A stretch of DNA of 64,000 nucleotides from an uncultured Gemmatimonadaceae bacterium (GTDB lineage: Bacteria > Gemmatimonadota > Gemmatimonadetes > Gemmatimonadales > GWC2-71-9): positions 34,351 to 98,350 of the forward strand of contig CAZRGT010000016.1 in NCBI GenBank assembly GCA_964599725.1. Reading direction: 5' to 3'. This document shows positions 1-46,861 of the stretch, piece after piece (within the stretch, counting starts at the first letter, position 1; each line of letters opens with the position of its first letter). The notes beneath the pieces were generated by a model. The model was not told the DNA's origin. It was given only the letters and a program-made list of their open reading frames with translations, and did not search any database. A program made the translations under genes and the position numbers.

Positions 1-390
1 CGTCGGCCCGGCGTACACCTTGAGCATCTGTTTCACTTTCTGTCGCGACAGCGTGGTCTTGGGCAGCATTCCCCACACGGCCTTCTCGATCACCCGGTCG
101 GGATGCTTGGCGAGCAGCGATGCGAGCGGCGTAAATCGCTCGTGCCCCATGTAGCCGGTATGCCGAAAATAGCGCTTCTGCTCCAGCTTGCGGCCGCTCA
201 GCTTCACCCGCTCGGCGTTGACGACGATGACCGCATCGCCGCCGTTCAAATACGGCGTGAACGTCGGCTTGTGCTTCCCGCGCAGGATTTGCGCGACGCG
301 GCTCGCCAGCCGGCCGAGCGGTTGCCCGGCGGCGTCGACCACGAACCACTGCCGCGTGATGTCTTCTTTGCGCAACACGAACGTCTTCAT
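1..390 (-). CDS. rplM: 50S ribosomal protein L13 (3' end runs off window)
   Basis: Hand translation from ATG 390: MKTFVLRKEDITRQWFVVDAAGQPLGRLASRVAQILRGKHKPTFTP...HTGYMG...KVYAGP; not in ORF track. Confidence 0.97.
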   Translation of the reverse strand, partial: MKTFVLRKEDITRQWFVVDAAGQPLGRLASRVAQILRGKHKPTFTPYLNGGDAVIVVNAERVKLSGRKLEQKRYFRHTGYMGHERFTPLASLLAKHPDRVIEKAVWGMLPKTTLSRQKVKQMLKVYAGPT

Positions 391-426
391 GACCCGTCTC
401 TGTTTCCCGATTTTGGGCAGACTGGC

Positions 427-456
427 AGTATACCGAGGCCGCTAAGGCCCTGTCAA
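427..456 (-). promoter_or_regulatory. sigma70-type promoter for rplM
   Basis: TTGACA (456-451), 18 nt spacer, TATACT (432-427). Confidence 0.8.
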
Positions 457-995
457 CTTGAGGGTTCCGAACCCGGCAGCGGTTCGAGTGTCACCAGGGG
501 AACGCCCTTCTCCACGGCCATGCCCGGCCGCACATGCACCTTGGCCACGATACCCGGCCGACCAGCCCGGAGCTCGTTCTCCATCTTCATCGCCTCCACC
601 ACGACGAGACTGGCGCCGGCGCTCACCCGCTCGCCTTCCCTCACGTCCACCCGAACCACGAGCCCCGGCATCGGCGCCCGCACCACCCCGCCCCCCGGAT
701 CTCCGGCCCGCGGGCCCGTGAGCGACTGGAGATGGCGGGTCCGATCGTCCACCACTTCGACTTCGATCCGCTCCCCGACCGCCCCCAACGCCCACCGTGA
801 TCCCCCGGCTTCTCCCGGGCCGGCCAGCGGCTGGGCCGCAATCGTCCAGGATTCGCCTGCCAACAAGAGATGATGAAGTGGGGTCCCCGGAACGGAGGCC
901 ATATGCGCTTCGAACGGCTCACCGTCGACGCGTACCAGGCCACCGTCCACCTCGACCTCGACGGTGCGCGCGCCGAACCGGACATGGTACTTCAC
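453..995 (-). CDS. accB: Biotin carboxyl carrier protein of acyl-CoA carboxylase
   Basis: GTG start overlapping upstream stop; APMPG and EAMKM biotinylation motif. Confidence 0.92.
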   Translation of the reverse strand: MKYHVRFGARTVEVEVDGGLVRVDGEPFEAHMASVPGTPLHHLLLAGESWTIAAQPLAGPGEAGGSRWALGAVGERIEVEVVDDRTRHLQSLTGPRAGDPGGGVVRAPMPGLVVRVDVREGERVSAGASLVVVEAMKMENELRAGRPGIVAKVHVRPGMAVEKGVPLVTLEPLPGSEPSS

Positions 996-2233
996 GCCGC
1001 CTCCAGCGTGGCGACCACCTCGACCTGAGCCGTCTGGGGAAACACATCGAACGCCCGGACACCGCGAAGATGGTAGTTCACGCTCAGCCGGTGCAGGTCG
1101 CGAGCCAGCGTGGCCGGGTGCCTCGAGATGTAGGCAAGGCGGGACACCGGCTCTCCGGTGAGGCGCAACGACACATCCCAATGCAACCCGATCGCCGGGG
1201 GAGTGACGACGACGACTTGCGCGGGCGGCAGACTCGGCAGCACGTCCTCCGCCCGGCCGGCGATGCAGCGGACCCGATCGCCAAGGGCCACGATCTCGGG
1301 CCGGCGCCGGGCCCAGCCGACGGCCTTCTCATCGACGTCGACGCTGATGACGGTCGCCCCACGAAGAGCGAGCAGCACCGCCGTATCACCGATGCCGCCG
1401 TAGAGATCCCAGACGATGCACCCGTCGACGGGGCCGAGTTGTTCCACCGCCCACTGCCGCGACACGGCGCTCATCGCCGGATTGATCGCCTCGAACGCGG
1501 TCGCGGGAAAACCGGTCTCCGGACCGGCCACGACCCGGGGCGCGCCGTCCACCGGGCGCCACCAGCACACCAAGGCGTCACCCGCCGGCATCACCGACTG
1601 GAGTCGGTCGGCCGTGCGCCATGGGGCGCCGGCGGATTCGGCGATTACGTGACACATCCCGGCACGGTCGAGCCGCAACGTGAGCCTCGTCAAACGCTCG
1701 GGAAACAGGTCCGCGTGGCCTCGGAGATCTCGCCACAGGTCCATCAGGCTCAGGTCCGCGATGTGGCAGTCGTTCAACGGGAACACGCGACCGGGCCGAT
1801 CATGCGGATGGAAGCCGGCCATCGCTCCCAGAACCGCCAGCGTGACTTCAGTTCGATACCGCCATTGATCGGTCGCCGGAGCGATATCGGGATCGCTCAC
1901 GTCGAACTTCCCGATGCGGCGCAGACTGTCCCCCACGATCGCGCGCTTGGCGGCAAGCTGGGCCGGATACGCCAGGTGCTGAAGCTGACACCCGCTGCAC
2001 TGGTCCTGCACATAGTGCGGGCAGGCGGGAGTGACCCGATCGACCGACGCCTCGATGATCTCCGTCGCTTCCCCGCGAGCGAAGTGGCGATGCTCACGCA
2101 GGCTTCCGTCCCGCAACCGGACCCGCTCACCGGGACCGGTGCGCGGTACGAACACAGCCCGCCCATCGGCCAGACGTCCCACACCGTCCCCCCCGGCCGC
2201 AATCCCCGAGATGGCGACGATCTCGGCCGTCAT
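992..2233 (-). CDS. RlmD/RumA-family TRAM + [4Fe-4S] + SAM-fold protein with degenerate catalytic motifs
   Basis: TRAM-like N-terminus, CPHYVQDQCSGC...C cluster motif, DLYGGIG motif I; FEAIN, TPPAIG and YISRHPATLARD replace FxQVN, DPPRxG and YVSCxPATLARD. Confidence 0.85.
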   Translation of the reverse strand: MTAEIVAISGIAAGGDGVGRLADGRAVFVPRTGPGERVRLRDGSLREHRHFARGEATEIIEASVDRVTPACPHYVQDQCSGCQLQHLAYPAQLAAKRAIVGDSLRRIGKFDVSDPDIAPATDQWRYRTEVTLAVLGAMAGFHPHDRPGRVFPLNDCHIADLSLMDLWRDLRGHADLFPERLTRLTLRLDRAGMCHVIAESAGAPWRTADRLQSVMPAGDALVCWWRPVDGAPRVVAGPETGFPATAFEAINPAMSAVSRQWAVEQLGPVDGCIVWDLYGGIGDTAVLLALRGATVISVDVDEKAVGWARRRPEIVALGDRVRCIAGRAEDVLPSLPPAQVVVVTPPAIGLHWDVSLRLTGEPVSRLAYISRHPATLARDLHRLSVNYHLRGVRAFDVFPQTAQVEVVATLEAA

Positions 2234-3749
2234 CGCAGACCTTCCCGGCGTGCCTCGGATTGCCAGACGGGCGGCCGGATGGTCGGATCGAGGGATGGAC
2301 CCCCGAGCTTGCCCCCGGTGCGCCGCTCCTCGGCGAGCAGCGCTGCGACGACCGCGATCGGGCGCACCAAGGGCGGTGCGAGCGGCTCGGCCAGAAGGCG
2401 CGCCCCGGCGTGCTCCAAGTACGTGATGTCGATGTCGCCGCGGCGGAACTCCGGATCGTCCAGCACGCGGAGATGAAACGCCTGAGAGGTCGGGAGGCCG
2501 ACGATCACCAGCTCCCGTAAGCCACGGCGCATGCGCTGGATCGCCGCGTCGCGCGTCTCGCCCCACACAATGAGCTTGGCGATGAGCGGATCGTAGTACA
2601 ACGTGACCTCGTTGCCCGCCTCGACGCCACCGTCCCACCGGACCCCGGGGCCACCCGGCACGCGCAGATAACGCACCACACCGGTGGCAGGCAGGAAACC
2701 GTTGAACGGATCCTCGGCCGTAATCCGGCATTCGATGGCATGGCCGCGAGGCTGCAGATGGCCGGCCGCCACCCGCATCGGCTGGCCCGCCGCGATCCGC
2801 AGCTGCTCGCGCACCAGGTCCACCCCCGTGACCAGCTCGGTCACCGGGTGCTCCACCTGGAGGCGGGTGTTCATTTCGAGAAAGTAGAACTCCCCATCGG
2901 GGGCCAGCAGAAACTCGATCGTTCCCGCGCCGACGTACCCCACTGCGCCCGCGGCCGCCGTCGCCGCCTCGCCCAGGCGGCGCCGCAGCGCCGGCGTCAC
3001 CGCGACCGACGGCGCCTCCTCGATGAGCTTCTGGTGCCGCCGCTGGATACTGCACTCGCGCTCGCCCAGCGATACGATGCGACCGTGCGTATCCGCCAGC
3101 ACCTGGATCTCGATATGCCGCGGTCGCTCGATGCAGCGCTCGAGATACACGCTGCCGTCGCCGAACGCCTTCTCGGCCTCACTGCGCGCCGCCTGATAGG
3201 CGCCGGGGACCTCTTCGACAGACCGGACCACGCGCATCCCTTTCCCGCCCCCACCTGCCGCCGCCTTGACGAGTGCGGGGAATCCAATCCGCTCCGCCTC
3301 GCGCCGCGCATCGACCGCATCCACCAGGGCGCGGGTCAGTCCCGGCACAATGGGCACGCCCGCGGCCTGCATCCGCCGCCGAGCCTCGGTCTTGTCGCCC
3401 ATGGCCCGAATCGCCGCGGCGGGCGGACCGACGAAGATCAACCCGGCGGCGACGATGGCCTCCGCAAACGGAGCCCGCTCGGATAGAAACCCGTAGCCGG
3501 GATGAATCGCCTGGCAGCCGGTCCTTTGGGCCGCGGCGATGAGCTTGGGGATGTTGAGGTAGGACTCCGACGCGGCCGGGTCTCCGAGTGGCACGGCGTC
3601 ATTCGCGGCCCGGACGTGGGGCGAGAGTCGATCCGCGTCGGAGTACACCGCGACTGCTTCGAGGCCTTCTTCGTGGCAGGCCCGGATGATGCGCAGGGCG
3701 ATCTCGCCCCGATTGGCGACGAGGACACGCTGGAGCGGGACGTCGGGCA

Positions 3750-3750
<1 letters not shown>
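2230..3750 (-). CDS. accC: Biotin carboxylase subunit (acetyl/propionyl-CoA carboxylase)
   Basis: LVANRGEIA, HPGYGFLSE, RECSIQRRHQK, EMNTRLQVEHP. Confidence 0.96.
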
Positions 3751-5273
<1,523 letters not shown>

Positions 5274-5350
5274 GGGGAGAATCTAGGGGTCAGGAGATAG
5301 GAGGATAGGTCAGGCAGCCGCTAAACGCACAGACGCATCGCGGGCGACAG

Positions 5351-5380
5351 CACAAAGGGGACAGGAAGACCCTGTCCCCT
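5351..5380 (-). terminator. Intrinsic terminator after rpsA
   Basis: AGGGGACAGG-GTCTT-CCTGTCCCCT perfect 10-bp stem followed by TTGTG. Confidence 0.7.
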
Positions 5381-5404
5381 CCCATCCTGTCGACGACGAT
5401 GCGT

Positions 5405-7135
5405 CTATGCGTCTAGACTTGCCGGGCCGGTATCCTGCTTCTCTGGTTCCTGTGCGCCTTCGTCCTGCGGGAAGTTGGTCGCGGCCAGCACGATCCGGTG
5501 ATGAATCGGGTCCACCTCGAGGACTTTCATGTCCACCGCCTGGCCTTCCTTCACCGCATCGGCCGGGTTGTGCAGCTCCGGGATGCCGAGCTGGGAAATC
5601 GGCACGAAGCCCTCGATGTCGTCGCCGACGTCGACGACCACGCCCTTATCCATGAGGCGCAGCACGCGCCCGCGCAGCTCCGTCCCGACCGGGTACGTCT
5701 CCCCGATCCGCAGCCACGGGTCTTCCTGGGCCTGCTTCAGGCCGAGCGAGATGCGCTTATTCTCGGCGTCGACGTTGAGGATGAGCACCTCGACCTCATC
5801 GCCCTTCTTCACGACTTCGGACGGGTGTTGCACGCGCTTGGTCCAGGACATGTCGGAGATGTGGATCAGCCCATCGATGCCCGGCTCGATCTCCACGAAG
5901 GCACCGAACGACGTCAGATTGCGCACTTTGCCCTTGAGCCGCGTGCCCACCGGGTATTTCTGGGGCAGAGCCATCCACGGATCCTGCTCCGTTTGCTTCA
6001 TGCCGAGCGAGATCTTCTCCTCGGTCTCGTCGACTTTCAGCACGACCGCTTCGATGGTCTCGCCGATGGAGACGATCTTCGAGGGATGGCGGACGTTGCG
6101 CGTCCAGCTCATCTCGGAGATGTGCACCAGGCCTTCGATGCCCGGCTCGAGCTCGACGAAGGCGCCATAATTCGTGATCGAGACGACCTTGCCCTGCACT
6201 CGCGTGCCCACCGGGTATTTCGCGGCGACGTCCTTCCAGGGGTGCTCCTGCAGCTGCTTCAACCCGAGGGAAATGCGCTCGCGTTCCCAATCGATGTCCA
6301 GGATCTTCACCTGCAGCTCCTGGCCGAGCCGCACCATCTCGCTCGGATGCGAGACCCGTCCGTAGCTCATGTCGGTGATGTGCAGCAAGCCATCGACGCC
6401 GCCCAGGTCGATGAACGCGCCGAAATCCGTGATGTTCTTCACCACGCCGGTGCGCACCTGACTCACTTGCAGCTCCTTCATCAGCACTTCGCGCTTGGTC
6501 TTGCGCTCGGCTTCCAGCAGCACGCGGCGCGACACCACGATGTTGCGGCGGCGCTTGTTCAGCTTGATGATCTTGAATTCGTAGCTCTGGCCCAGCAGCT
6601 CGTCGATGTTGGGCACGCGCCGCAGCGCGATCTGACTGCCCGGCAGGAACGCGTCGACGCCCATCAGGTCCACGACCACGCCGCCCTTGATCTTCTTTAC
6701 CAAAGCGCCGCTGACGGCCTCGTCCCGCTCGAAGGCTTCCCGGATGCGCTCCCACACCCGCATGAAATCGGCCTTCTTCTTGGAGAGCACCACCGCGCCC
6801 TCCTGATCCTCGAGATGCTCGAGGTAGACCTCGACTTCATCGCCTTCCTTGAGACTCTTGGGATCCTTGAACTCGTCGATCGCCACGGCGCCCTCGGACT
6901 TGAAGCCGACGTCCAAAATGACGGCGGCGTCGGTCACCCGGAGCACTTTCGATTTGACGATCTCCCCTTCCTGAATGTTCGAGAGCGTGCCCTCGTACAT
7001 CTCCGACATCTTTTCGATCTCGTCGGCAGAATACTGCTCGTCGAGCCCGGCAAGGACGCGGATCGGGGGGTGGGGAGCTTTCTTGGGTGGGGCGTCGGCG
7101 GGAGAGCCTTCGATGTCCTGCGCTTCAGCCAGCAT
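5405..7135 (-). CDS. rpsA: 30S ribosomal protein S1
   Basis: Six S1 repeats (DFGAFIDLGGVDGLLHITD, YGAFVELEPGIEGLVHISE etc.). Confidence 0.98.
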   Translation of the reverse strand: MLAEAQDIEGSPADAPPKKAPHPPIRVLAGLDEQYSADEIEKMSEMYEGTLSNIQEGEIVKSKVLRVTDAAVILDVGFKSEGAVAIDEFKDPKSLKEGDEVEVYLEHLEDQEGAVVLSKKKADFMRVWERIREAFERDEAVSGALVKKIKGGVVVDLMGVDAFLPGSQIALRRVPNIDELLGQSYEFKIIKLNKRRRNIVVSRRVLLEAERKTKREVLMKELQVSQVRTGVVKNITDFGAFIDLGGVDGLLHITDMSYGRVSHPSEMVRLGQELQVKILDIDWERERISLGLKQLQEHPWKDVAAKYPVGTRVQGKVVSITNYGAFVELEPGIEGLVHISEMSWTRNVRHPSKIVSIGETIEAVVLKVDETEEKISLGMKQTEQDPWMALPQKYPVGTRLKGKVRNLTSFGAFVEIEPGIDGLIHISDMSWTKRVQHPSEVVKKGDEVEVLILNVDAENKRISLGLKQAQEDPWLRIGETYPVGTELRGRVLRLMDKGVVVDVGDDIEGFVPISQLGIPELHNPADAVKEGQAVDMKVLEVDPIHHRIVLAATNFPQDEGAQEPEKQDTGPASLDA

Positions 7136-9225: not shown

Positions 9226-11319
9226 CTACGGCGCTTCGATCTTGATCGTCTTGTATTTCCGGAATCCCGGCCATTGCGTGTTGCCCTGCGCGCCTGAGCC
9301 CACCTGCAGCGTGAGGAACAACCCGACGTAGCTGCCACCCGCGCGATTGAAGTCGTGGACATCACCGCCGTTGAGCAGCGGATGGCGGAACTCGTACGTC
9401 GTGTACGTACCGTTGTTGGCCAATCCGGCAGCGCCGTTTTGCGTCTCGGCGGCACTCCAGCACGTCGACTGCGTGGACGTGGTGCACTTGAGCGTCAGGA
9501 ATGCGTCCGTGAATGTTGGCGACGCGTTGACCACCAGGACGTCGTCGTTCTCGGCGGCGGCGCCAGTACTGCACGCCGTTTGATCGGGACAGCTGTTGTT
9601 GTTGTCGAAGTTGAACTGCAGCGTGTTGACTTTGTCCGTGCTGCTGCGCTTCACGCGCACGGCCAGGTAGAGATTGGTGGCGTCGTTCATCCAGTATAGC
9701 GTGGCCGGCGTCGACGACCCGCCCGAGAGATTCGCGTTGAAATCCTGATGCCGCGCGCAATCCCATTCGCCCGCGGCCATCACACCATTGGGTGTAGCCG
9801 TGCCGAAGCCGGGCTTGCAGGCCGTGGCCTTGAACGGCAGCGTCCCCGTGGGCAGGTCTCCAGAGAGCGTGGGACTGCCGGCCAGGCCCACTCCGCTCGC
9901 CGTCAGGGTGTATGTGCCCGCCGTGGACCCGAGCGTCCACGACGTCACCTGGGCGATGCCGCTCGTATCGGTCGGGACGCACTGGAGTAGGGAGTCCGAC
10001 AGGCACGGGACGCCGCCAGCCGGAAGGACGACTGTACTTCCGCCCGAAGCGACAAAATGCACGGTTGCGCCGGCGACGGGGTCGCCTGCCGGGTCGGTCA
10101 CCTTCACCGACGGGGCAATCGCCACGGGCGTGCTCACGAGCGCCGTCTGGTTGTCGCCCGCATTCTTCGCCATTTGCGAAGGAATGGCCCACACCAGGTT
10201 GCTCAGCTTGCGGCCCGAGCCTCCCAGTAGATGGGCGGCAAAGAGCGGCGGCGGGGAAAACCACGGACCTACCTCACGCTGGAACATGCGCCACGTCCGG
10301 CGCGCGAAGTTCAGCACCGGGTTCGCACCCAGATCGGCAAAACCGTCGCAGTTGAGGCCGAGGGGCTGCGCCTCCGGCAGCGCCTCGGGAGGCGCACCGG
10401 GATCCCAGCGGTGGATCTGGAGCTTCTCTTGCTGTGCCGTGCTCAAACCTGTGGGCAGCTTGAGACACATCCCCACGATGTAGTTCGAGCTGAACGTGAC
10501 GTCCGCGGGGAAGGTCCTGAAGTCGTAGCACCCCTCGAACTGCGGCAGATCGGCAGGGACGAAACTGACCCGGCCGGTAGACGTGCACGGGAGCTTCTGC
10601 ATGATGATCGTGACGTCGCCCACGGTTGAGAGCGCCCCATTCGGGATGGACAGGTTCGAGAAGTTCGCCAGCACGCTCCCGCCGCCGGTGCCCACGGTTC
10701 CCTCACCGCAGTCCGTGGCGTTCGCCACGCACAGTGCGCCCTTCTCGATCCGGAACTTGATGGGGTTCGTGCTCCCATTCAGGAACACGTAGAGAGCCTC
10801 GCTCTGGTCCTTCGGCACCTCCTGCGGCGTGGCCACCGGTTTCACGTCGCGAAACCCGAATTCCTTGCACCCCGGCAGGTCGGCTGGGGCCGGGTAGCCG
10901 AACGCAGCCGGGCAGGCGGATCCGCTGCCTGTCCCGATGTTCCCGAGAATCACCCGCACGCGGTAGGTATGCCCACTGACCAGGACGGAGGGGTCGGTGT
11001 TCCAGTTCACTTTGTACTGCTGGCTCACCACGTCAATCGAGATCTCCGACGGGGCGAAGCGCGTAACGAAGTTCGCACAGTTCGGGTCCGTGGTGAGATG
11101 ACAGATCTCGACCAGGGGTTTCAGGCTCGGGTTGAACGTGCCGCTGTAGCTCGGCTGCGTGACCAGGGGCGGGAGGAAGAAGAAGTGCGCATTACCACCG
11201 TGACCGCCATCCGAGAGCGCTGCGGAGATTCGACCAGGAGGCAGGGAGGTGGGTTGCTCGCTGTCCTGACATCCAAGAAACATGACGGCTGTGAGAGCCA
11301 TTCCTACAAGGCGCTTCAT
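9226..11319 (-). CDS. Secreted multidomain lipoprotein (ZU5-like, Ig-like/Big_1 and C-terminal DOMON/CBM9-like regions)
   Basis: Lipobox-like FLGC after a hydrophobic signal; AGDNQT...VKVTDPAGDPVAGATVHF Ig-like signature; GEWD...DATNLYLAVRV...YEFRHPL sugar-binding-like fold; GGAGGG RBS. Domain calls are by eye. Confidence 0.7.
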   Translation of the reverse strand: MKRLVGMALTAVMFLGCQDSEQPTSLPPGRISAALSDGGHGGNAHFFFLPPLVTQPSYSGTFNPSLKPLVEICHLTTDPNCANFVTRFAPSEISIDVVSQQYKVNWNTDPSVLVSGHTYRVRVILGNIGTGSGSACPAAFGYPAPADLPGCKEFGFRDVKPVATPQEVPKDQSEALYVFLNGSTNPIKFRIEKGALCVANATDCGEGTVGTGGGSVLANFSNLSIPNGALSTVGDVTIIMQKLPCTSTGRVSFVPADLPQFEGCYDFRTFPADVTFSSNYIVGMCLKLPTGLSTAQQEKLQIHRWDPGAPPEALPEAQPLGLNCDGFADLGANPVLNFARRTWRMFQREVGPWFSPPPLFAAHLLGGSGRKLSNLVWAIPSQMAKNAGDNQTALVSTPVAIAPSVKVTDPAGDPVAGATVHFVASGGSTVVLPAGGVPCLSDSLLQCVPTDTSGIAQVTSWTLGSTAGTYTLTASGVGLAGSPTLSGDLPTGTLPFKATACKPGFGTATPNGVMAAGEWDCARHQDFNANLSGGSSTPATLYWMNDATNLYLAVRVKRSSTDKVNTLQFNFDNNNSCPDQTACSTGAAAENDDVLVVNASPTFTDAFLTLKCTTSTQSTCWSAAETQNGAAGLANNGTYTTYEFRHPLLNGGDVHDFNRAGGSYVGLFLTLQVGSGAQGNTQWPGFRKYKTIKIEAP

Positions 11320-11557: not shown

Positions 11558-14080
11558 CTACCGCGTGGACCTCGCCCCGACGAGGGCCTGGAAGCGGGGT
11601 TCATCCTGCAGTCCGCGCCACCACCAGCCCACGTCCACACCGGGCCCGAAGTGACCCGGATGGCCTGCGGCGAAGCGCTTCAGAATCGCGATCGCTTCGT
11701 CCTTGTCCCCGAGGAGGACGTAGCTGTACGCGACGATGGTCGTGAGATCCTCGTTGGGGTCTACCTCGTGCGTGAGTCCCGCGCGCGCCCGGCGCAGCAC
11801 GTTCCGCGCGCTATCGCCGAGCCCCGCGCGCGCGAGCACACCCCCGACCCTCAATTGCCCGTACAAGCGTTCGTACGGCCGACGATCCGCGGGCGCCAGC
11901 GTGTCCAGCCCGGCCGCCTCCTGCCACGCTCGACCGACATCCGGCGCCACCCCCGGCGTCACCAGCAGATCGAGCTGACATTCCGCGAAGCGGAAGTCCT
12001 GGGGGAAGCGCCGGCCGCCCTCGTCGCACCAGCGCTGGGCCTGCGTGAATTGCTCGAGGTCGAGCGAGCCGTTGACCAGCCGATACAAGACCAGGTTGGC
12101 CACGCTGAGGTAGGCGTCCTCTTCATAGGCCCGGCGGGCCGCCAGGATCGCCGCCGCCACGTCGTCGAATTGGTAATACAAGTGGCTGAGCGTGGCGTGC
12201 GCGCTCGCCAGCGCCGGGTCCAGCCCGACCGCGGTCTCGAGATCCTGCCGGGCGTCGCTCAAGAGCTTCGCGCGCTCGGTTGGGTCGGGCGTCACGGCAA
12301 GAATGTAGTGCCAGTAGCGCAGGTTCCCCCGCAGCTCGAGCGCCTTCGGGTCGTTCGGGGCGATCTCCAACGCCCGCGCCGTGTGCCGCAACCCGTCCTC
12401 GATGTGCTCCACCGCCGCCTTGGGGTCGCTCTCGGCCAACCGCGATTGCCGGTAGGCTATCCCGGCCCGCAAGATGAGCGGCTCGGTCCATTGCGGATCG
12501 AGCGCCGCGGCCTGGACCCCCAGCGTATCGGCGCGCGCGAACGCCCGCACGGCGCCCGCCATGCTGTCCGCCACGAGGTACGCCTCGGCGTCCTTACGCG
12601 ACTTCTCGGCCTGCTGCACGAGCACCCACGCCTGTAGTTCCTTGGTACCGGCGCGCTGCTCCCGGAGCCGCACTTCCTGACCCAGCCGGGTGCGCAGGAA
12701 TCCGGCCACCCGCCGCACCAGCGTGTCCCGGACCGCCAGCAGGTTGCCGCCAGGCTCTTCAAAACTCTGCCGGTCCACGTCCGCGCCGCTCGCTCCGTCC
12801 ACCAGGCGAGCCGCAACCCTCACGCGCCCCCCAACCTCCTCCACGCTGCCCTGAATGAGGCTCCCCACGTGCAGGGCCCGCGCGATGCTGTCGCCCGATA
12901 GCGTACTGCCCCGATAGGCCGCGACGCCGTTCTTGGAGATTACCTGCAGCCCCGGCACGCTGCCGAGTTGGTCGATCAATGCTTCCGTGAGCCCGTCGGC
13001 GAGATAGCCCAGGGAGGAATCCCGACTCAAGTCCTCGAAATAGCGTACCGCGATATTGCGCGGATCGAGAGCGCCCAGGGCGACGCCGCCTGCAGGCTTC
13101 GGGGCGAGAAAACGGCGAGCTCCCCACGCCACAACTGCGAGCAGCAGCACCGCCGGCACCGCCCAGAGGAGGCGGCGTCGCCCGCCGCCTGCCCGTTTTG
13201 GCGCCTCCGCGACCTCGCCGGTCCGGCGCCGCACCGCAGCCGTCACGGTGGATGGCGCGGCGAGCGCCTCAGCGAACATGATGACCGTCGGGAAGCGGTC
13301 GGCGGGGACCTTGGCCAGCGCCCGCATCAGCGCGGCTTCCATTGTCTCAGGGATCGTGTCCCGCACGATCGACGGCGGCGACACCACGGCCATCGAGTGC
13401 CGGGCGATGATCGCCTGCACGTTCGGGCCCGTGAACGGCGGCTGGCCCACCAGCATCTCGTAGACAACGCACGCAAGACTGTACTGGTCGCTGCGTCCAT
13501 CGATGACGTCACCGGTGCTCTGCTCGGTGCTCATGTATGCCGGCGTGCCGATGACCGTTCCGGTCTGCGTCAGCTGCTGCTGTTCCACGGCCGAGGCGGC
13601 CCGGGCGATTCCGAAGTCGGCCACCACCGCGCTGCCCCCGGACAGCATGATGTTCTCGGGTTTGATGTCCCGATGGACGACGTCGTGGCTGTGAGCGTAC
13701 CCCAGCGCACTCGCGACCTCGGACGTGATCTTGATGACGTCCTCTTGCGGCAGCTGCTTCTCACGGTCCAGGCGGTCCCGGAGCGACTCGCCCTCGACGA
13801 ACGGCATGACGTAGAAGAGCGAGCCCGCCGCTTCCCCCGAGTCATACAACGGCAGGATGTGGGGGTGCTGCAGCCGGGCGGCGATCTCGATTTCGCGCAG
13901 GAAACGATCGGGACCGATCGCGGCCGAGATGTCCGGATGGAGGACCTTGATGGCCACTTTGCGGCGGTGTTTCAGGTCTTCGGCCAGATACACCGTAGCC
14001 ATACCGCCGCGTCCCACCTCCCGCTCCAGGGCATAGCGGTCGGCGAGAGCGTCGCGCAGCGTGTCGAAGAGGTCGCTCAA
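11558..14080 (-). CDS. Membrane Hanks-type Ser/Thr kinase with extracytoplasmic TolB-N-like and TPR-like region
   Basis: GRGGMATVY, VAIK, HRDIKPEN, DFG, GTPAYM; one TM segment; IAVRYFEDLS; probable TTG start 14080. Confidence 0.9.
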   Translation of the reverse strand: MSDLFDTLRDALADRYALEREVGRGGMATVYLAEDLKHRRKVAIKVLHPDISAAIGPDRFLREIEIAARLQHPHILPLYDSGEAAGSLFYVMPFVEGESLRDRLDREKQLPQEDVIKITSEVASALGYAHSHDVVHRDIKPENIMLSGGSAVVADFGIARAASAVEQQQLTQTGTVIGTPAYMSTEQSTGDVIDGRSDQYSLACVVYEMLVGQPPFTGPNVQAIIARHSMAVVSPPSIVRDTIPETMEAALMRALAKVPADRFPTVIMFAEALAAPSTVTAAVRRRTGEVAEAPKRAGGGRRRLLWAVPAVLLLAVVAWGARRFLAPKPAGGVALGALDPRNIAVRYFEDLSRDSSLGYLADGLTEALIDQLGSVPGLQVISKNGVAAYRGSTLSGDSIARALHVGSLIQGSVEEVGGRVRVAARLVDGASGADVDRQSFEEPGGNLLAVRDTLVRRVAGFLRTRLGQEVRLREQRAGTKELQAWVLVQQAEKSRKDAEAYLVADSMAGAVRAFARADTLGVQAAALDPQWTEPLILRAGIAYRQSRLAESDPKAAVEHIEDGLRHTARALEIAPNDPKALELRGNLRYWHYILAVTPDPTERAKLLSDARQDLETAVGLDPALASAHATLSHLYYQFDDVAAAILAARRAYEEDAYLSVANLVLYRLVNGSLDLEQFTQAQRWCDEGGRRFPQDFRFAECQLDLLVTPGVAPDVGRAWQEAAGLDTLAPADRRPYERLYGQLRVGGVLARAGLGDSARNVLRRARAGLTHEVDPNEDLTTIVAYSYVLLGDKDEAIAILKRFAAGHPGHFGPGVDVGWWWRGLQDEPRFQALVGARSTR

Positions 14081-14189
14081 GAGGTCATGGGCGGCACGCC
14101 CGAACGATACGACCGGTGCCCCGGTGTCGCCACGCCTACGCCCCCGCTCTTGTCCGAAGCCCACCCGCCACCCTACTAATAGAGAGCCG

Positions 14190-15983
14190 ATGACCCGCCC
14201 ATCCCTCTCGTTCCAGGGGCCGCTCGCGCGTGCTCCGAGTATCACGCGTCTCTTCATCGCGACTTTTGTCGCGGTGGCGCTGGCGGGGTTCACGATCACC
14301 CTTCTCTCCTGGCTCGGCGCGCGACGCACCGAGCGCTCCACCATGGCGATGCTCGCCACGCTCGATCGGCTGCACACCTTGGCTCCCCAGCCAGCGTTGG
14401 ACACGGAGCGCGACCGGATCCGGGCCATCGCGGAGGATTTGAACGACGAGGCGCAGCAAGCGGCCCTGGCGACCACCATCATCTTCGTCGCCGTCCTCGC
14501 CTCCCTCGGCATCGGACTGGTGTACAGCCGCCGCCGATTGGCCGAGCCGTTCGGTGAAATCGTGGCGGCACTGGAGCGGGTGGCGACCGGAGAGTACGGC
14601 GTGCGCCTCCCGGAGCAGACCTCGGAGGAGTTTCTCGCTCTCGCCCAGGGCGTGAATCGAATGGGGGAGACCCTCGCCTGGCGGGAGCGGATTCAGGATT
14701 ACCAGTCGCGACTGCTCGGCGCCCTCAACGCCACCACGCGGGAAGGCTCCGGGCTGGCCCCCGCCCTCGACGTTCTGGCCGAGGCGACGCAGGCGTCCGG
14801 ACTCGTCTTGTACCAACCGGACTATGAAGCGAACGAATGGAGTCCCACCGCCGCGCGCGGCGCGGAGCCGCGGTCCGTGTCCCGGATCGTGGTGCGCGAG
14901 CTGATCGGCGATGGCACGGCCGGCGTGCTGCACCTGGCGGGCGAACAGAACACCGTCGCCCGCCAGAAGCTGCAACTTCCGGCCACGCCGAGCCACGAAG
15001 TGGCGGTTGCCCCGTTACGAACCGCGGGGCGGCTCGCCGGGCTCCTGGTCGCGATTCCACCCGACAGCTTCAGTTCCGACCAGATGGACGCCTTGGCGCT
15101 CGCGCTCCCGAACCTGGCCATCGCCTGCGAGCGGGAGTCGGCGTTTCAGCACACCCGCCGGCTCGCGACGGAGGTGCGGCGGACCGCGCAGTATCTGGAG
15201 GAGCAATCCGACGAGCTCACTCGGCTGAACGAGGAGCTGGCCAAGGCGAACCGCCTGAAGAGCGATTTCCTGGCCAACATGTCGCACGAACTGCGCACGC
15301 CGTTGAACAGCATCATCGGCTTCAGCGACATGCTCCTGACCCAAGAAGTCGGCCAACTCAACGGGATGCAACAGGACTTTCTGGAAACCGTGGCGCGCAA
15401 CGGCCGCCACCTGTTGCAGCTCATCAGCGAGCTGCTCGATCTCTCCAAGATCGAGGCCGGGAAGCTGCAGCTCACCCCCGAGTCGCTCGACCTGCGGGAC
15501 CTGTTACGGGAGGCCGCCGAAAGCGTGCGGGCCCAGACCGAGAAGCGACGGCACACGTTGCAGGTCGACACCCCCGCCGAGCCGCTCGTGGTTCCCGCCG
15601 ATCATGTGCGCGTGCGACAGGTGCTGCTCAACCTCCTGTCGAACGCGATCAAGTTCACCCCCGAGGGCGGCCAGGTTCGCCTCCTGGGCCGGGAAGAGGA
15701 CGGAGGAGCCCGGATCGAAGTGATCGACAGCGGCATCGGCATCGCCCTCGAGGATCAATCCAAACTGTTCAAGGAATTCATGCAGGTCGACACATCGGCC
15801 AGCCGCCACTACGAGGGCACGGGCCTCGGACTCGCACTCTGCAAGCGACTGGTGGAGCTGCACGGCGGACGCATCGGCTGTGAGAGCGCGCGCGGTCTCG
15901 GCAGCACGTTCTGGTTCACCCTGCCGCGAGAATCCCCGACATCCGGGGGGGCGCCGCAGGTCCCCACGCAGGGAGGGTCCTGA
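14190..15983 (+). CDS. Sensor histidine kinase (2 TM-HAMP-GAF-like-HisKA-HATPase)
   Basis: FLANMSHELRTPLN, NLLSNAIKFT, DSGIGI, GTGLGL. Confidence 0.93.
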   Translation: MTRPSLSFQGPLARAPSITRLFIATFVAVALAGFTITLLSWLGARRTERSTMAMLATLDRLHTLAPQPALDTERDRIRAIAEDLNDEAQQAALATTIIFVAVLASLGIGLVYSRRRLAEPFGEIVAALERVATGEYGVRLPEQTSEEFLALAQGVNRMGETLAWRERIQDYQSRLLGALNATTREGSGLAPALDVLAEATQASGLVLYQPDYEANEWSPTAARGAEPRSVSRIVVRELIGDGTAGVLHLAGEQNTVARQKLQLPATPSHEVAVAPLRTAGRLAGLLVAIPPDSFSSDQMDALALALPNLAIACERESAFQHTRRLATEVRRTAQYLEEQSDELTRLNEELAKANRLKSDFLANMSHELRTPLNSIIGFSDMLLTQEVGQLNGMQQDFLETVARNGRHLLQLISELLDLSKIEAGKLQLTPESLDLRDLLREAAESVRAQTEKRRHTLQVDTPAEPLVVPADHVRVRQVLLNLLSNAIKFTPEGGQVRLLGREEDGGARIEVIDSGIGIALEDQSKLFKEFMQVDTSASRHYEGTGLGLALCKRLVELHGGRIGCESARGLGSTFWFTLPRESPTSGGAPQVPTQGGS

Positions 15984-21174: not shown

Positions 21175-21443
21175 GCGCCCTCGACCACCAGCAGGTCTGC
21201 CGTGCGACACGTGTCGAGGAATTGCCGCACGCTGGCTTCTGCCTGCTCCGGCGTCACCTCGTATTGCTCCACGAGCAAGCGCACCAGCTCGTCCACGGAT
21301 CGCGGCGCTTCGAGCGCCTGCAACAGGATCAGGCCGCTCTCGGTCACGGAAAAATAGCGGCGCGTTCCCAGATGCAGCACGACCCCGTCGCCTTCGACGT
21401 CGGCGAGGCGCAAGTCCGGATGTCGGATGTAACGTTGGCTCAT
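21171..21443 (-). CDS. RiPP recognition element (PqqD/B1 family)
   Basis: VEGDGVVLHLGTRRYFSVTESGLILLQAL...VEQYEVTPEQAEASVRQFL, 90 aa. Confidence 0.92.
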   Translation of the reverse strand: MSQRYIRHPDLRLADVEGDGVVLHLGTRRYFSVTESGLILLQALEAPRSVDELVRLLVEQYEVTPEQAEASVRQFLDTCRTADLLVVEGA

Positions 21444-22357
21444 GTGACGAGCTCGATCAGACGGTTCGGTCGGGAGAACAAGTCGCGCCCCAACGTAACC
21501 CGGTAGCAACGCGCCTGCCCGGTCAGTCGTGTCAGCACGTTCAGGTGGTCCTGCGCCAGGTCGGGCTCGAGCATCACCCATGCGGACCACCGCACCAGCT
21601 CCGCCACCGCCCCCCGCCGATCCAGGGGCTTGGCGCTGGTCTTGGCGTTTCCCACGGCCGTGAAAATAACGACCTCCGGGTCGACGAGGGGGGTCCAGAC
21701 ACCCCCCAGATCCTCCGGCCGGTATCCGGTCTTCCCCCGATCGGGGAGGGATACCCCCCCGGCTCGGGCGAGTAGCCCCAGGCCGCCATCGCGCAGGGCG
21801 ATGGGCGCGCGACAGGTGTGCACGATGATGCGATCGCCGCGGCGCTCGAGGAACGCCGCGTCATCTGTTCCTACGCGCCAACCCGACGCCGCCAACAGGG
21901 CGGCGGTCGTGGACTTTCCCGCATGCGCGTTGCCGGCCACGAGCCAGCCACGGCCCTGCGGGTCAATCGCCGTCGCCGCGTGCAGGTGATACCAGCCCAC
22001 CCGCCGCAGCAAGACGATCAGGACCACCATCAGGAAGGTGCGGGTACAGAGCTCGAGCTTTTCAACCGCGGCCGGGGAAAGACGGATCGACGCCGTAGCA
22101 GCATCGCCAGGAACTTCGGCGATCGCGGGGGCTTCCTCCCACAACACGCGGAGGCCCCGACCTCCGGGGCCTCGCGCGAAGCGCACCTGGGGTTGCTCGA
22201 AAACGACCTCCGTCAGCGCCGGGATCGCGGCGGCCGAGACCGAGACGTCCAGAACCAGGCCGGGTGGCGCCGCGAGGGATAACCTCGCAAGCCATCCCTC
22301 GAGGACCGCCTTGACGGAGACGTCGCTGCATCGAATCTCGATGGCGGGGGCAGACAT
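21440..22357 (-). CDS. HPr kinase-related P-loop kinase
   Basis: HLHAA, GNAHAGKSTT Walker A, GTDD acidic pair. Confidence 0.85.
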   Translation of the reverse strand: MSAPAIEIRCSDVSVKAVLEGWLARLSLAAPPGLVLDVSVSAAAIPALTEVVFEQPQVRFARGPGGRGLRVLWEEAPAIAEVPGDAATASIRLSPAAVEKLELCTRTFLMVVLIVLLRRVGWYHLHAATAIDPQGRGWLVAGNAHAGKSTTAALLAASGWRVGTDDAAFLERRGDRIIVHTCRAPIALRDGGLGLLARAGGVSLPDRGKTGYRPEDLGGVWTPLVDPEVVIFTAVGNAKTSAKPLDRRGAVAELVRWSAWVMLEPDLAQDHLNVLTRLTGQARCYRVTLGRDLFSRPNRLIELVT

Positions 22358-23212: not shown

Positions 23213-23224
23213 AGGCCTCTTACG

Positions 23225-23308
23225 TGCCCGGGGCAGGACTCGAACCTGCATGGGGTTGCCCCCAAGGGATTTTAAGTCCCTTGCGTCTACCGATTTCGCC
23301 ACCCGGGC
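23225..23308 (-). tRNA. tRNA-Leu (anticodon TAA), CCA not encoded
   Basis: GCCCGGG acceptor stem, TGGCGAAATCGGTAGACGC D-arm, GGGA-CTTAAAA-TCCC anticodon arm, long variable arm, GTTCGAGTC T-loop. Confidence 0.96.
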
Positions 23309-45374: not shown

Positions 45375-45995
45375 CTAGCGGTGGGCCAGCGCGAAGCTCA
45401 GCGTCTCGAGCTCCAAGGCCATGTTCACGGTCTGCACCGCGATGTCCTGCGGCACCGAGAGCTGGACCGGCGCGAAGTTCAGAATCGCCTTGACGCCCGC
45501 CCGCACCAGTCGGTCCGCCACTTCCTGAGCCGCCTCCGCCGGCGTCACGAGGATCGCGATTTCCGTCGGCTCCTTCCTGAGGTCCGCCTCCAGGCAACGG
45601 ATGTCCCGCACCACGAGGCCGTTCCACGCTGAGCCGATCTTCCTGGGATCGCGGTCGTAGATCGCCGATACCTCGAAGCCATGCTGCCGAAACCCCTGGT
45701 AGTGCAACAGCGCACCTCCCATCTTCCCCGCCCCCACCAGCACGACGCGGTGGCTGCGCTTCAGCCCCAGGATCTCGCGGATGCGACCGGCGAGCTCGGG
45801 CACCGAGTAGCCCAGACCCCGCTTGCCGAAGGAGCCGAAGAACGAGAGATCCTTCCGGACCTGGGCCGGTGTGGTCCCTCCGCGCTGCGCCAGCTCGGCG
45901 GAGCTGATGGTCGCGACCCCCTGCGCCGCCGACTGCTCCAGGAAGCCCAGGTACAGCGCCAGGCGCCGGACGGTCGAGTCCGAGATCTTCCGCAT
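45375..45995 (-). CDS. rex: Redox-sensing repressor Rex
   Basis: STVRRLALY, QVRKDLSFFG, GKRGLGY, GAGKMG, ILNF. Confidence 0.97.
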   Translation of the reverse strand: MRKISDSTVRRLALYLGFLEQSAAQGVATISSAELAQRGGTTPAQVRKDLSFFGSFGKRGLGYSVPELAGRIREILGLKRSHRVVLVGAGKMGGALLHYQGFRQHGFEVSAIYDRDPRKIGSAWNGLVVRDIRCLEADLRKEPTEIAILVTPAEAAQEVADRLVRAGVKAILNFAPVQLSVPQDIAVQTVNMALELETLSFALAHR

Positions 45996-45996
45996 A

Positions 45997-46014
45997 TTGT
46001 GAATTATTTCACAA
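45997..46014. promoter_or_regulatory. Rex operator
   Basis: TTGTGAA-TTAT-TTCACAA, exact consensus, 1 nt from rex ATG. Confidence 0.93.
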
Positions 46015-46035
46015 TCGATCCCTCCCACGCAAGCC

Positions 46036-46857
46036 TCAGGATCGACCGACGGCTCCGCCGCGAAACAGCTGCACGAATTGCTCCGGGGTGAGCGTCTCGG
46101 GGCGCTGGGTAACGGCGATCCCCAACGATTCGAGCTGCGCCGTCACCCGCTCCGGTTCGTTCCCGGTCACGGCGCTCAGCACGTTGCGCATTTGTTTGCG
46201 ACGCAGACTGAAGCACGCCGTCACGAACGCCCGGAATCGCGGCACCTCCTCGGGATCCACCAGGGGAGCGGGCAGCGGCCGGAGACGGACCACGGCGCTG
46301 CGCACTTTGGGCGGTGGCTGGAACGCCCCTGCGGCCACGCCAAACAGCTGCTCCACCTGGGACAGCGACTGAACGCCCACCGACAACCCCCCATACGTCT
46401 TCGACCCGGGTCGCGCGGCCAGCCGAACGGCGACTTCCGCCTGGACGAGAAACACGACCAGCTGCGGCAGGGGCGCGGTGAGCGCTCTTTCGATGAGGGG
46501 AGTCGTGATTTGGTAGGGGATGTTGCCGACGACCTTCCATTGCGGATTGCGGATTGTGGATTGCGGAATGAGCTCTTTCCAATCGATCCGGAGAGCGTCG
46601 CCCGAAACCACTTGGATATTTGGCGATCCAAGGCCCGCCACCCGCCATCGCTCCACCAGCCGCACGTCCTTCTCGATCGCGATCACGCGACCGACGCGTT
46701 CCGCCAGTACGCGCGTCAGCGTGCCCGAGCCGGCGCCGATCTCGATGACGACATCGGCCGGCGAGGGTTCCAGGGCATCCACGATGCGCTCGAGGATGTG
46801 TCGATCAGCGAGAACATGTTGCCCCAGCCACGGGGGACGGCGCCGAGCGACTGCCAC
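46036..46857 (-). CDS. rsmA: 16S rRNA dimethyltransferase
   Basis: LGQH, EIGAGSG, GNIPYQIT, PPPKVRS. Confidence 0.96.
   Translation of the reverse strand: MAVARRRPPWLGQHVLADRHILERIVDALEPSPADVVIEIGAGSGTLTRVLAERVGRVIAIEKDVRLVERWRVAGLGSPNIQVVSGDALRIDWKELIPQSTIRNPQWKVVGNIPYQITTPLIERALTAPLPQLVVFLVQAEVAVRLAARPGSKTYGGLSVGVQSLSQVEQLFGVAAGAFQPPPKVRSAVVRLRPLPAPLVDPEEVPRFRAFVTACFSLRRKQMRNVLSAVTGNEPERVTAQLESLGIAVTQRPETLTPEQFVQLFRGGAVGRS
46540..46567. repeat. Heptamer tandem repeat inside rsmA
   Basis: TTGCGGA TTGCGGA TTGTGGA TTGCGGA, encodes IPQSTIRNPQ. Confidence 0.75.
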
Positions 46858-46861
46858 GCCG

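Follow-up and report, generated by a model that had tools for sequence, protein, structure and literature searches.

The window, by which we mean the whole 64-kb stretch of DNA that was analysed, carries within an acyl-CoA carboxylase gene cluster an RlmD-type gene whose product lacks the nucleophile Cys and the uracil-recognising residues of the m5U methyltransferases. We consider it probable, from conservation patterns across orthologues, that the protein is a pseudoenzyme retained because of a function other than catalysis, which is most likely the binding of RNA in rRNA or tRNA maturation. After the loss of the Cys residue the catalytic pocket drifts neutrally, and the remainder of the protein is as constrained as it is in active relatives.

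An RlmD-type gene in an acyl-CoA carboxylase cluster

The gene encodes a complete protein of the RumA/RlmD type, made up of a TRAM domain, an Fe-S domain with four Cys residues and a methyltransferase domain with a Rossmann fold. Its AF2 model (pLDDT 94, pTM 0.91) matched RlmCD (5zq0) and RumA (2bh2) over the full length in Foldseek, with TMq values of 0.87 and 0.85, respectively, and shows the three-domain fold of the RumA/RlmD type (COG2265, TIGR00479). Pfam PF05958 scored 25.4 bits, above its cut-off of 23, and Pfam TRAM scored 19.1 bits, slightly below its cut-off of 21. The top NCBIfam model was TIGR00479, with a score of 162.5 that falls below the RlmD equivalog cut-off of 183.55; among the intact orthologues, two lie above this cut-off (L002, 201.6; L070, 203.0) and L035 scores 162.0. 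The best PDB sequence match found with phmmer was P. abyssi TrmU54 PAB0719 (E = 1.6e-24), and the residue equivalences used below were taken from phmmer alignments to solved structures (RumA, TrmU54 and RlmCD).

The open reading frame, which reads from 2233 to 992 on the minus strand, is intact over its full length of 413 aa (Table 1). Its start overlaps the accC stop in an ATGA at 2230-2233, and its end overlaps the start of the biotin carboxyl carrier protein (BCCP) gene in a GTGA at 992-995; these are the couplings to accC and to the BCCP gene, there called accB, that an earlier note on this DNA had claimed. The score of the carboxyltransferase against TIGR01117 (771 bits) is below the equivalog cut-off of that model. 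The order pccB-accC-X-BCCP, where X is the RlmD-type gene, was found wherever the flanks were present (80 GTDB-species loci and the closest relatives), and in distant Gemmatimonadota orthologues the order is pccB-accC-X-BCCP-rplM. Overlaps of 4 nt are the rule, being found at 110 loci between accC and X and at 102 loci between X and the BCCP gene. The RlmD-type gene is a conserved, co-located and co-translated member of the acyl-CoA carboxylase gene cluster. In relatives, rplM is followed by rpsI-rpsB-tsf-pyrH-frr. The phylum-wide conservation of the operon position had not been anticipated by the earlier note.

Table 1. Positions of the RlmD/RumA-type gene, its motifs and its neighbours in the window
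Feature	Position	Strand	Remarks
rplM (ribosomal protein L13)	1..390	-	cut off by window edge
BCCP gene, 180 aa	453..995	-	EAMKME motif; directly downstream, translationally coupled
RlmD/RumA-type gene	992..2233	-	413 aa and TGA stop; catalytic residues absent
Motif VIII, DVFPQTAQVE, residues 396-405	1019..1048	-	general-base Glu405 present; His replaced by Gln403
Motif VI, YISRHPAT, residues 368-375	1109..1132	-	nucleophile Cys replaced by Arg371; Asp/Asn by His372
Motif IV, TPPAIG, residues 344-349	1187..1204	-	Asn/Asp replaced by Thr344, Arg by Ala347; PP and G retained
Motif II acidic residue D299	1337..1339	-	intact; equivalent to RumA E315
Motif I, DLYGGIGD, residues 276-283, SAM glycine loop	1385..1408	-	intact
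Motif X, FEAIN, residues 247-251	1481..1495	-	Phe retained; uracil-recognising Gln replaced by Ala249
Putative Fe-S ligand span, C71-C156	1766..2023	-	four Cys
C156	1766-1768	-	TGC; assigned by PAB0719 alignment and invariance; outside any RumA alignment
C82	1988-1990	-	TGT; aligns with RumA C90
C79	1997-1999	-	TGC; aligns with RumA C87
C71	2021-2023	-	TGC; aligns with RumA C81
TRAM (OB-fold RNA-binding) domain, residues about 1-60	2054..2233	-	aligns with RumA N-terminus
accC, biotin carboxylase, 506 aa	2230..3750	-	NCBIfam NF006367 626 bits; directly upstream, translationally coupled
Acyl-CoA carboxyltransferase, PccB/MmdA type, 507 aa	3750..5273	-	TIGR01117 771 bits; Pfam Carboxyl_trans matches

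One could envision that the non-catalytic function serves the acyl-CoA carboxylase or its operon and not ribosome or tRNA maturation, the protein being, for example, a subunit with accessory or regulatory duties, or an Fe-S/SAM-sensing regulator that acts by binding the operon mRNA. A role connected with the carboxylase, and not with RNA, could be suggested by the phylum-wide, translationally coupled place of the gene between those for biotin carboxylase and BCCP, and the Fe-S cluster ligands and the SAM pocket are kept without catalysis. However, the carboxylase cluster is itself embedded among translation genes (rpsA upstream, rplM-rpsI-rpsB-tsf-frr downstream), so that the neighbourhood equally supports a link to the ribosome. 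Furthermore, no fusion of the RlmD-type gene with accC or the BCCP gene was seen among the loci examined, the intact ancestor shows all the features typical of RNA m5U methyltransferases, and literature searches turned up no precedent for a carboxylase role. We regard this explanation as unlikely. A broader proposal, to which we give a similarly small chance, is that the main selected function of the RlmD-type protein throughout the phylum is not methylation but an Fe-S-/SAM-dependent RNA-binding function tied to its accC-BCCP position. If this were true, then the protein might, as a regulator that senses redox state or SAM or as an assembly factor, link the production of acyl-CoA carboxylase to that of ribosomes, and m5U would be an optional extra that a whole soil/sediment Gemmatimonadales clade is discarding.

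The uracil pocket and the cofactor sites

Codon 371, read from the raw sequence, is AGG at 1121-1123 (cct on the plus strand). The segment YISRHPATLARD of the window protein aligns with YVSCNPETFARD of P. abyssi TrmU54 and with YVSCNPATLARD of E. coli RumA, placing Arg371 at the position of the nucleophile Cys (RumA C389, TrmA C324). The residues by which RumA recognises uracil, Q265, D363 and R366, are likewise replaced, by Ala249 (codon 1487-1489; FEAIN aligned with FYQVN), Thr344 (codon 1202-1204; TPPAIG aligned with DPPRAG) and Ala347. The ancestral motif IV in the family of this phylum is NPPR, with Asn and not Asp, and Thr344 therefore replaced Asn. The motif VIII Glu (RumA E424) is present as Glu405; several members of the clade lack it. 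These alignments bear out what the earlier note had read at the nucleophile and motif-X positions, as well as the retention it reported of the general-base Glu region, the TRAM domain, the four Fe-S Cys residues and the SAM glycine loop. At motif IV the Thr that it reported stands, but the Asp that it took to be ancestral does not. Two changes were additional to those in the note: the motif-IV Arg is also gone (Ala347), and the residue after the Cys position is now His372.

In RumA, C389 is the covalent nucleophile, the Q265A substitution lowers activity 830-fold and the D363A mutant is inactive; in TrmA, the C324A, D299A and Q190A mutants are defective (PMC1904294). The alignments, taken together with these mutant data, support the loss of standard m5U catalysis in the window protein, in agreement with the view of the earlier note that m5U cannot be made by the standard mechanism. 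The protein would be unable to form the Cys-C6 covalent adduct, from which it would follow that no m5U is made.

The ligands of the [4Fe-4S] cluster of RumA are C81, C87, C90 and C162, and RumA E315 contacts the SAM ribose. Four Cys residues of the window protein, C71, C79, C82 and C156, form a predicted [4Fe-4S] site, and all four are invariant both in a 121-sequence set and in 150 of 150 locus-derived sequences. SAM motifs I-III also appear to be in place (DLYGGIGD, D299 and the conserved E329-D330). Among 83 sequences that lack the nucleophile Cys (hereafter Cys-less), D276 is found in 81 and G282 and D283 in all 83; the residues of the SAM motifs are retained in 80-83 of them, and the PP of motif IV almost fully. 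Position 299 is Asp or Glu in 265 of 265 sequences. If no methyl transfer occurs, the conservation of the SAM motifs counts against the pseudoenzyme reading, although the motifs may be structural.

Loss of the nucleophile and the selection that followed

Logan contigs from two independent metagenome runs reproduced the region with zero differences, contig X1 (depth about 21) spanning 400-2874 and contig X2 spanning 886-1193, with the AGG codon included. A read or assembly error was rejected on the basis of the identical contigs in the two runs and of relatives from other assemblies that show the same state. Private decay, or an incipient pseudogene, was rejected in view of the clade-wide loss, the synonymous turnover of the Arg codon and the low dN/dS. 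The earlier note had allowed that close orthologues might keep the Cys and that the changes might be private decay or read errors; the closest orthologues in fact lack it.

The Cys is absent from the whole of the window's clade, which comprises 16 sequences at about 70-92% identity. Position 371 is Arg in 14 of them and Gly in two, and His372 is found in 94%. The three different codons that encode Arg371 within the clade (AGG, CGT and CGG) indicate that the loss is old. The more distant Gemmatimonadota orthologues (39-51% identity) keep Gln, Asn, Arg, Cys and Glu in 52 of 52 cases; judged by these residues, the ancestral protein was catalytically complete, with its gene already positioned between accC and the BCCP gene. 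Inside a single Gemmatimonadales subclade the nucleophile Cys was lost roughly 20-30 times, being replaced by R, G, A, D, S, L, V, T or Y across these independent lineages. By counts that rest on a neighbour-joining (NJ) tree and on distance clustering, there were about 22 changes at the Cys (Fitch parsimony) and the 83 Cys-less sequences fell into about 31 clusters, some of which are only 0.8-3% from a Cys-bearing sequence. The confinement of the losses to one subclade, and their absence from the 52 more divergent orthologues, is a point against the pseudoenzyme reading. No substitution that might have pre-disabled catalysis was found at the base of the clade, where only position 328 (V/A) shows a fixed difference.

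Neither the recurrent, clade-wide loss nor the intact distant orthologues had been foreseen by the earlier note. Cys223, a residue that became fixed in the subclade and does not vary there, was considered as a substitute nucleophile and rejected, the pocket being otherwise gone. It stands where L, V, Y, I or F stood, in a beta-strand beside an invariant WW, and is therefore a core residue.

The only columns that are invariant in the distant orthologues yet variable in the Cys-less sequences are 249, 344, 347, 371, 398, 403 and 405. At these seven pocket codons pN/pS was 1.00 in Cys-less pairs versus 0.05 in Cys-bearing pairs. Pooled whole-gene dN/dS, calculated pairwise by the Nei-Gojobori method on metagenomic sequences and not with a codon model on a tree, was 0.171 for 10 Cys-less pairs and 0.180 for 33 Cys-bearing pairs; on the same pairwise basis, it was 0.145-0.20 between the window gene and its 92%-identical Cys-less relatives, and 0.02-0.035 for the TRAM domain among the three closest Cys-less sequences. 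The distance to the outgroup, normalised to accC, gave no significant acceleration (1.40 versus 1.38, p = 0.07). The equal pooled dN/dS values and this distance comparison led us to reject the idea that constraint on the protein as a whole has relaxed where the Cys is lost. The purifying selection for which the earlier note had proposed to look is present, and features expected of a pseudoenzyme are found together: the catalytic residues are lost with the fold kept, the selection persists, and the loss is common to orthologues.

Another possibility is that the gene is a translated spacer with no function of its own, the overlaps of which couple BCCP translation to accC and the misfolded products of which are selected against. 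The 4-nt overlaps usual at both junctions and the gene order constant over 80 species-level loci, wherever flanks are present, would fit such a spacer. However, a spacer would not keep dN/dS at 0.17, the same as in active relatives, nor that of the TRAM domain at the low values given above, and about 31 lineages (83 sequences) would not have retained the four Fe-S Cys residues or the SAM motifs. Moreover, no truncation, internal stop or shrinkage was found among 150 full-length loci, a set from which one shorter copy of 363 aa (L022), which retains the Cys, was left out. We consider the spacer explanation unlikely.

One could also suppose that the protein is still an enzyme, either transferring the SAM methyl group without a Cys nucleophile (as in N- or O-methylation) or acting on a new substrate. 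Very few of the 83 Cys-less sequences depart from SAM motifs I-III or the motif-IV PP, Arg371 and His372 became conserved in the window's clade, and Glu405 is kept in the window protein, all of which would be consistent with a surviving activity. On the other hand, positions 249, 344, 347, 398, 403 and 405 vary even between 92%-identical proteins, with pN/pS of about 0.75-1.0, Gly stands at 371 in two clade members, and nine different replacements of the Cys in some 20-30 lineages look like loss and not convergence. A re-tooled active site would not be expected to show the hypervariability and neutral evolution found in the old uracil pocket after the Cys loss, and we consider a surviving enzyme very unlikely. 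The earlier note had left the choice between a pseudoenzyme and a new substrate; with a neutral pocket and a remainder under purifying selection, the former is favoured over the latter.

The least probable explanation is that the dead protein is the non-catalytic partner, in the manner of METTL14/METTL3, of an intact m5U methyltransferase paralogue elsewhere in the genome: a loss limited to a subclade would fit a second active enzyme gained at the clade base, and RNA-binding and SAM-site features are kept, but no second m5U methyltransferase or TrmFO was found within the 64-kb window, and the papers cited here do not present enzymes of the RumA type as obligate heteromers. No rRNA in which U1939 could be inspected was found in the window, the only RNA gene of which is a tRNA-Leu.

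A probable non-catalytic role and comparison with known enzymes

Because the catalytic residues are lost and yet conservation is as tight as in active relatives, the window protein probably has a second, methylation-independent job. In the pseudoenzyme reading that we prefer, selection would preserve this second function: the protein would bind the ancestral RNA substrate, for which 23S U1939, U747 and tRNA U54 are the candidate sites, through its TRAM, Fe-S and Rossmann surfaces and might, as a chaperone, help rRNA or tRNA to fold or assemble, by analogy with the catalysis-independent roles of E. coli TrmA, RlmB and RlmKL. Its translation would be coupled to that of the carboxylase genes within a ribosomal-protein gene cluster.

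It has long been asked whether RNA-modification enzymes matter because of the modification they make or because of the protein as such, and the answer has so far been sought mostly in E. coli and yeast, with mutants engineered to lack catalysis. The Gemmatimonadales subclade offers a natural experiment, in which the nucleophile and the uracil pocket were lost about 20-30 times and the remainder, including the predicted Fe-S site, stayed constrained. Matched active and dead orthologues are thus available for asking what the protein does apart from catalysis and what the Fe-S cluster contributes. For a sizeable part of this clade, the name 23S rRNA (uracil1939-C5)-methyltransferase that automated annotation gives to these genes (JGI names) is incorrect.

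E. coli RumA/RlmD, which makes 23S m5U1939 (PDB 1UWV, 2BH2), has the same layout of TRAM, four-Cys [4Fe-4S] and Rossmann domains, and the window protein keeps its SAM motifs and its motif-X Phe. The two differ in sequence (about 23% identity) and at C389 (Arg), Q265 (Ala), D363 (Thr) and R366 (Ala); unlike RumA, the window protein stays below the TIGR00479 cut-off and is encoded in an acyl-CoA carboxylase operon. RlmCD of S. pneumoniae and B. subtilis (m5U747 and m5U1939; PDB 5ZQ0, 5XJ1) has the same domain order and is the top structural match. It is an active methyltransferase according to PMC5614603; the window protein differs from it in being without the nucleophile Cys and in having the four Fe-S Cys residues. 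P. abyssi TrmU54 (PAB0719; tRNA m5U54; PDB 2JJQ) likewise combines TRAM, Fe-S and methyltransferase domains but, unlike the window protein, is archaeal and active. TrmU54 also illustrates that a RumA-like architecture can target tRNA.

The chaperone analogy rests on TrmA, a tRNA chaperone with a modification-independent role (PMC7641329), and on RlmB and RlmKL, which have modification-independent roles in 50S assembly (PMC11194073). In these proteins function persists without catalysis, and the RNA-binding domain is the critical part. The evidence there, however, came from engineered mutants of natively active enzymes, whereas here evolution repeatedly removed catalysis and the protein was kept. 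In the Mollicutes, rlmD was lost in some lineages, and m5U1939 and RlmD are dispensable (PMC7226160); in contrast to the deleted or pseudogenised rlmD of those bacteria, the open reading frame in the window is intact and under purifying selection.

Catalytic residues of the RlmD-like protein

Pfam placed tRNA_U5-meth_tr above its cut-off and TRAM just under its own in the methyltransferase-like protein of the window, and the top NCBIfam model was TIGR00479 (RlmD), with 162.5 bits against a cut-off of 183.55. In a phmmer comparison with PDB sequences, the protein aligned with P. abyssi TrmU54, E. coli RumA and S. pneumoniae RlmCD, and three of its Cys residues were aligned to C81, C87 and C90 of RumA. 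In these alignments YISRHPATLARD lies opposite YVSCNP(E/A)T(F/L)ARD, TPPAIG opposite DPPRAG, and FEAIN opposite FYQVN. In RumA the covalent adduct is made by C389 (C324 in TrmA), with E424 acting as general base; the D363A mutant of RumA is inactive, and Q265A lowers activity 830-fold (PMC1904294). The alignments and these published residue roles together confirm the loss of catalytic residues proposed in an earlier note, the codon coordinates of which were exact against the sequence. The note had also described Thr in place of the motif-IV Asp; Thr is indeed present at 344, but the residue it replaced is Asn, as the distant orthologues carry NPPR. An AlphaFold2 model computed with 120 homologues (pLDDT 94, pTM 0.91) superposed along the entire chain on RlmCD (TMq 0.87) and RumA (TMq 0.85).

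The overlaps reported with the neighboring genes are also present: the ATG of the gene overlaps the accC stop codon (ATGA, 2230-2233), and at the other end its TGA shares bases with the GTG start codon of the gene for biotin carboxyl carrier protein (BCCP; GTGA, 992-995). This is a split-type carboxylase, with a separate biotin carboxylase (BC), BCCP and a single PccB/MmdA-like carboxyltransferase (507 aa) whose score is under the mmdA cut-off. The methyltransferase-like gene occupies precisely the point at which BC and BCCP are fused in actinobacterial alpha subunits. Elsewhere in the window are four sizeable high-GC3 ORFs without a Pfam family at E <= 1e-5, and ksgA/rsmA lies between genes for a redox repressor and a phosphatase (45375-48481, minus strand).

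Positions of features in the window
Feature	Position	Strand	Remarks
BCCP	453-995	-	180 aa, long N-terminal region
RlmD/RumA-type ORF	992-2233	-	intact, 413 codons
Biotin carboxylase (accC)	2230-3750	-	506 aa, C-terminal extension of ~55 aa
ORF without Pfam family	9226-11319	-	697 aa, largest of four; adjoins Ser/Thr protein kinase
Ser/Thr protein kinase	11558-14512		984 aa
ORF without Pfam family	21440-22357	-	
tRNA-Leu(TAA)	23224-23308	-	sole RNA gene detected in 64 kb
Rex-like redox repressor	45375-46028	-	
ksgA/rsmA	46036-46857	-	16S rRNA adenine dimethylase
GAF-SpoIIE phosphatase	46862-48481	-	
ORF without Pfam family	49255-50259	+	
ORF without Pfam family	52863-53582	-	

Distribution of the Cys losses

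Scanning a single genome for each GTDB species yielded 80 loci (39-65% identity to the window protein), nearly all labelled Gemmatimonadota. Where flanks were present, the order was rpsA-pccB-(sometimes one extra gene)-accC-X-BCCP-rplM, X being the methyltransferase-like gene, with rpsI-rpsB-tsf-pyrH-frr beyond rplM in the closest relatives. Overlaps of 4 nt were usual at both X junctions (accC/X, 110 loci; X/BCCP, 102 loci). The distant orthologues all have Q, NPPR, SC(D/N)P, DFPQTxHxE and four Fe-S Cys, and of three tested, two score above the RlmD equivalog cut-off. The ancestor was therefore a catalytically intact m5U methyltransferase that carried Asn in motif IV and was already located in the carboxylase operon.

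The extra gene of ~1 kb, found in many Gemmatimonadales loci (4474-5414 in locus L002; as a gap in, for example, L003-L011), has an apparent signal-peptide-like N-terminus and no obvious family; it is absent from the window (junction at 3750) and the closest relatives, where nothing separates pccB from accC and the two genes abut or overlap. Two loci with the accC-X-BCCP arrangement carry other phylum labels (L027, a Candidatus Eisenbacteria MAG; L031, a Chloroflexota MAG); as their contigs are short (3-4 kb), mis-binning is a likelier explanation than horizontal transfer.

A search with the window protein returned 4419 matches, the best 120 of which were all at least 64% identical and came from Gemmatimonadales MAGs. 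In a MAFFT alignment of these 120 with the window protein, the four Fe-S cysteines, motif I Gly282, motif II Asp299, the motif IV PP, R378 and D379 are invariant, and motif I Asp276 is kept in 120/121. The nucleophile column is mixed (C61, R32, G10, A6, D6, S4, V1, T1), as are the remaining catalytic columns. The earlier note had considered that close orthologues might keep the Cys, or that the Arg codon was a read error. Neither proved to be so: Cys is absent from all 12 closest relatives aligned (69-92% identity), and in two independent freshwater-sediment metagenome runs the Logan contigs match the region with zero differences, the AGG codon being covered in both. A third freshwater-sediment library (run X3), labelled 'METAGENOMIC RNA-Seq', yielded contigs that match without differences parts of the gene (1600-1818 and 1947-2150) and of accC, pccB and BCCP (within 400-5300); these may reflect transcription or DNA carry-over, and are only a weak hint of transcription.

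We pooled 265 non-redundant sequences, comprising outer orthologues (<55% identity to the window protein, n=52) and an inner subclade (at least 58%, n=213). All five core residues are kept in 52/52 outer orthologues versus 107/213 inner sequences; in this sampling, which is biased toward the window protein, 83 inner sequences lack Cys, and 23 of those that keep it have lost a different core residue. Of the subclade's GTDB species representatives (L001-L023 and the partial L056), Cys is absent only in L012, L016 and L056. A neighbor-joining tree with the catalytic columns masked required about 22 Cys/non-Cys changes, all inside the subclade, and distance clustering gave about 31 Cys-less groups, each having a Cys-bearing sequence as a nearer neighbor than any other Cys-less group. 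In some of these groups the divergence from a Cys-bearing sequence is only 0.8-3%, indicating that their losses are recent. The window's group is the largest and oldest, and its 16 sequences differ from every Cys-bearing protein by 25% or more; residue 371 is Arg in 14 of them (codons AGG, CGT or CGG) and Gly in two.

Within this group, Arg371 is retained through synonymous codon changes, and the changes Asp372 to His (94%; 1118-1120) and Thr406 to Val have become fixed beside the former catalytic residues, a pattern that may represent local structural repair or a new pocket feature. Comparison of the subclade with outer orthologues uncovered no base-of-clade protein change accounting for the confinement of the losses. 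Residue 223 (1565-1567, in VCWW) is Cys in 213/213 subclade members and L/V/Y/I/F in 52/52 distant orthologues, so that its fixation coincides with the subclade where catalysis is being lost; we judged it a buried core replacement and rejected it as a substitute nucleophile.

Selection after Cys loss

By Nei-Gojobori estimates against 92%-identical relatives, dN/dS for the window gene was 0.145-0.20, with 0.02-0.035 in the TRAM domain, 0.11-0.14 in the methyltransferase domain and 0.24-0.39 in the central domain; the neighboring BCCP, accC and pccB genes gave 0.19, 0.06 and 0.07. Whole-gene values were 0.171 in 10 independent Cys-less pairs and 0.180 in 33 independent Cys-bearing pairs. Just seven columns combine invariance in the outer orthologues with high variability among Cys-less sequences: 249, 344, 347, 371, 398, 403 and 405, corresponding to the uracil pocket and the catalytic residues; pN/pS for these codons was 1.00 in Cys-less versus 0.05 in Cys-bearing pairs, and pocket residues vary even among the 92%-identical relatives. 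Outgroup protein distance normalized by accC was 1.40 for Cys-less versus 1.38 for Cys-bearing sequences (p = 0.07), and SAM-motif residues are retained in 80-83 of 83 Cys-less sequences. We conclude from these results that catalysis remains under selection where Cys is present, and that after Cys loss the pocket is neutral, while the TRAM domain, Fe-S site, SAM pocket and rest of the protein retain full constraint.

Proposed function and relation to known enzymes

The most economical reading is that the protein has two functions, of which the enzymatic one is dispensable in the subclade and has been lost repeatedly, and the non-catalytic one presumably preserves the gene. Its architecture and known precedents make RNA binding in rRNA or tRNA maturation the most likely candidate for the second function: tRNA folding by TrmA does not require its catalytic activity (PMC7641329), and RlmB and RlmKL help 50S assembly in a modification-independent way (PMC11194073). 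The gene also sits among ribosomal-protein and translation-factor genes. Its invariant position between accC and BCCP could instead point to a carboxylase-linked or regulatory role, which we consider improbable. A new enzymatic activity of the Cys-less protein is unlikely, as the pocket is hypervariable and Cys is replaced by many different residues, and the strong amino-acid-level constraint makes a pure translated spacer unlikely as well. That the protein acts as a partner of an intact paralogue seems improbable.

In Mollicutes, rlmD was lost by deletion or pseudogenization (PMC7226160); our literature searches turned up no account of a Cys-less RlmD orthologue that is intact and kept by selection, or of an RlmD gene inside a carboxylase operon. 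Active orthologues and their dead counterparts form naturally matched pairs, which offer a testbed for modification-independent functions and for the role of the RumA Fe-S cluster. By fold and descent the window protein is an orthologue of RlmD/RumA-type enzymes, but it lacks their defining catalytic features and scores below the curated cut-off, and should, therefore, not be annotated as RlmD.
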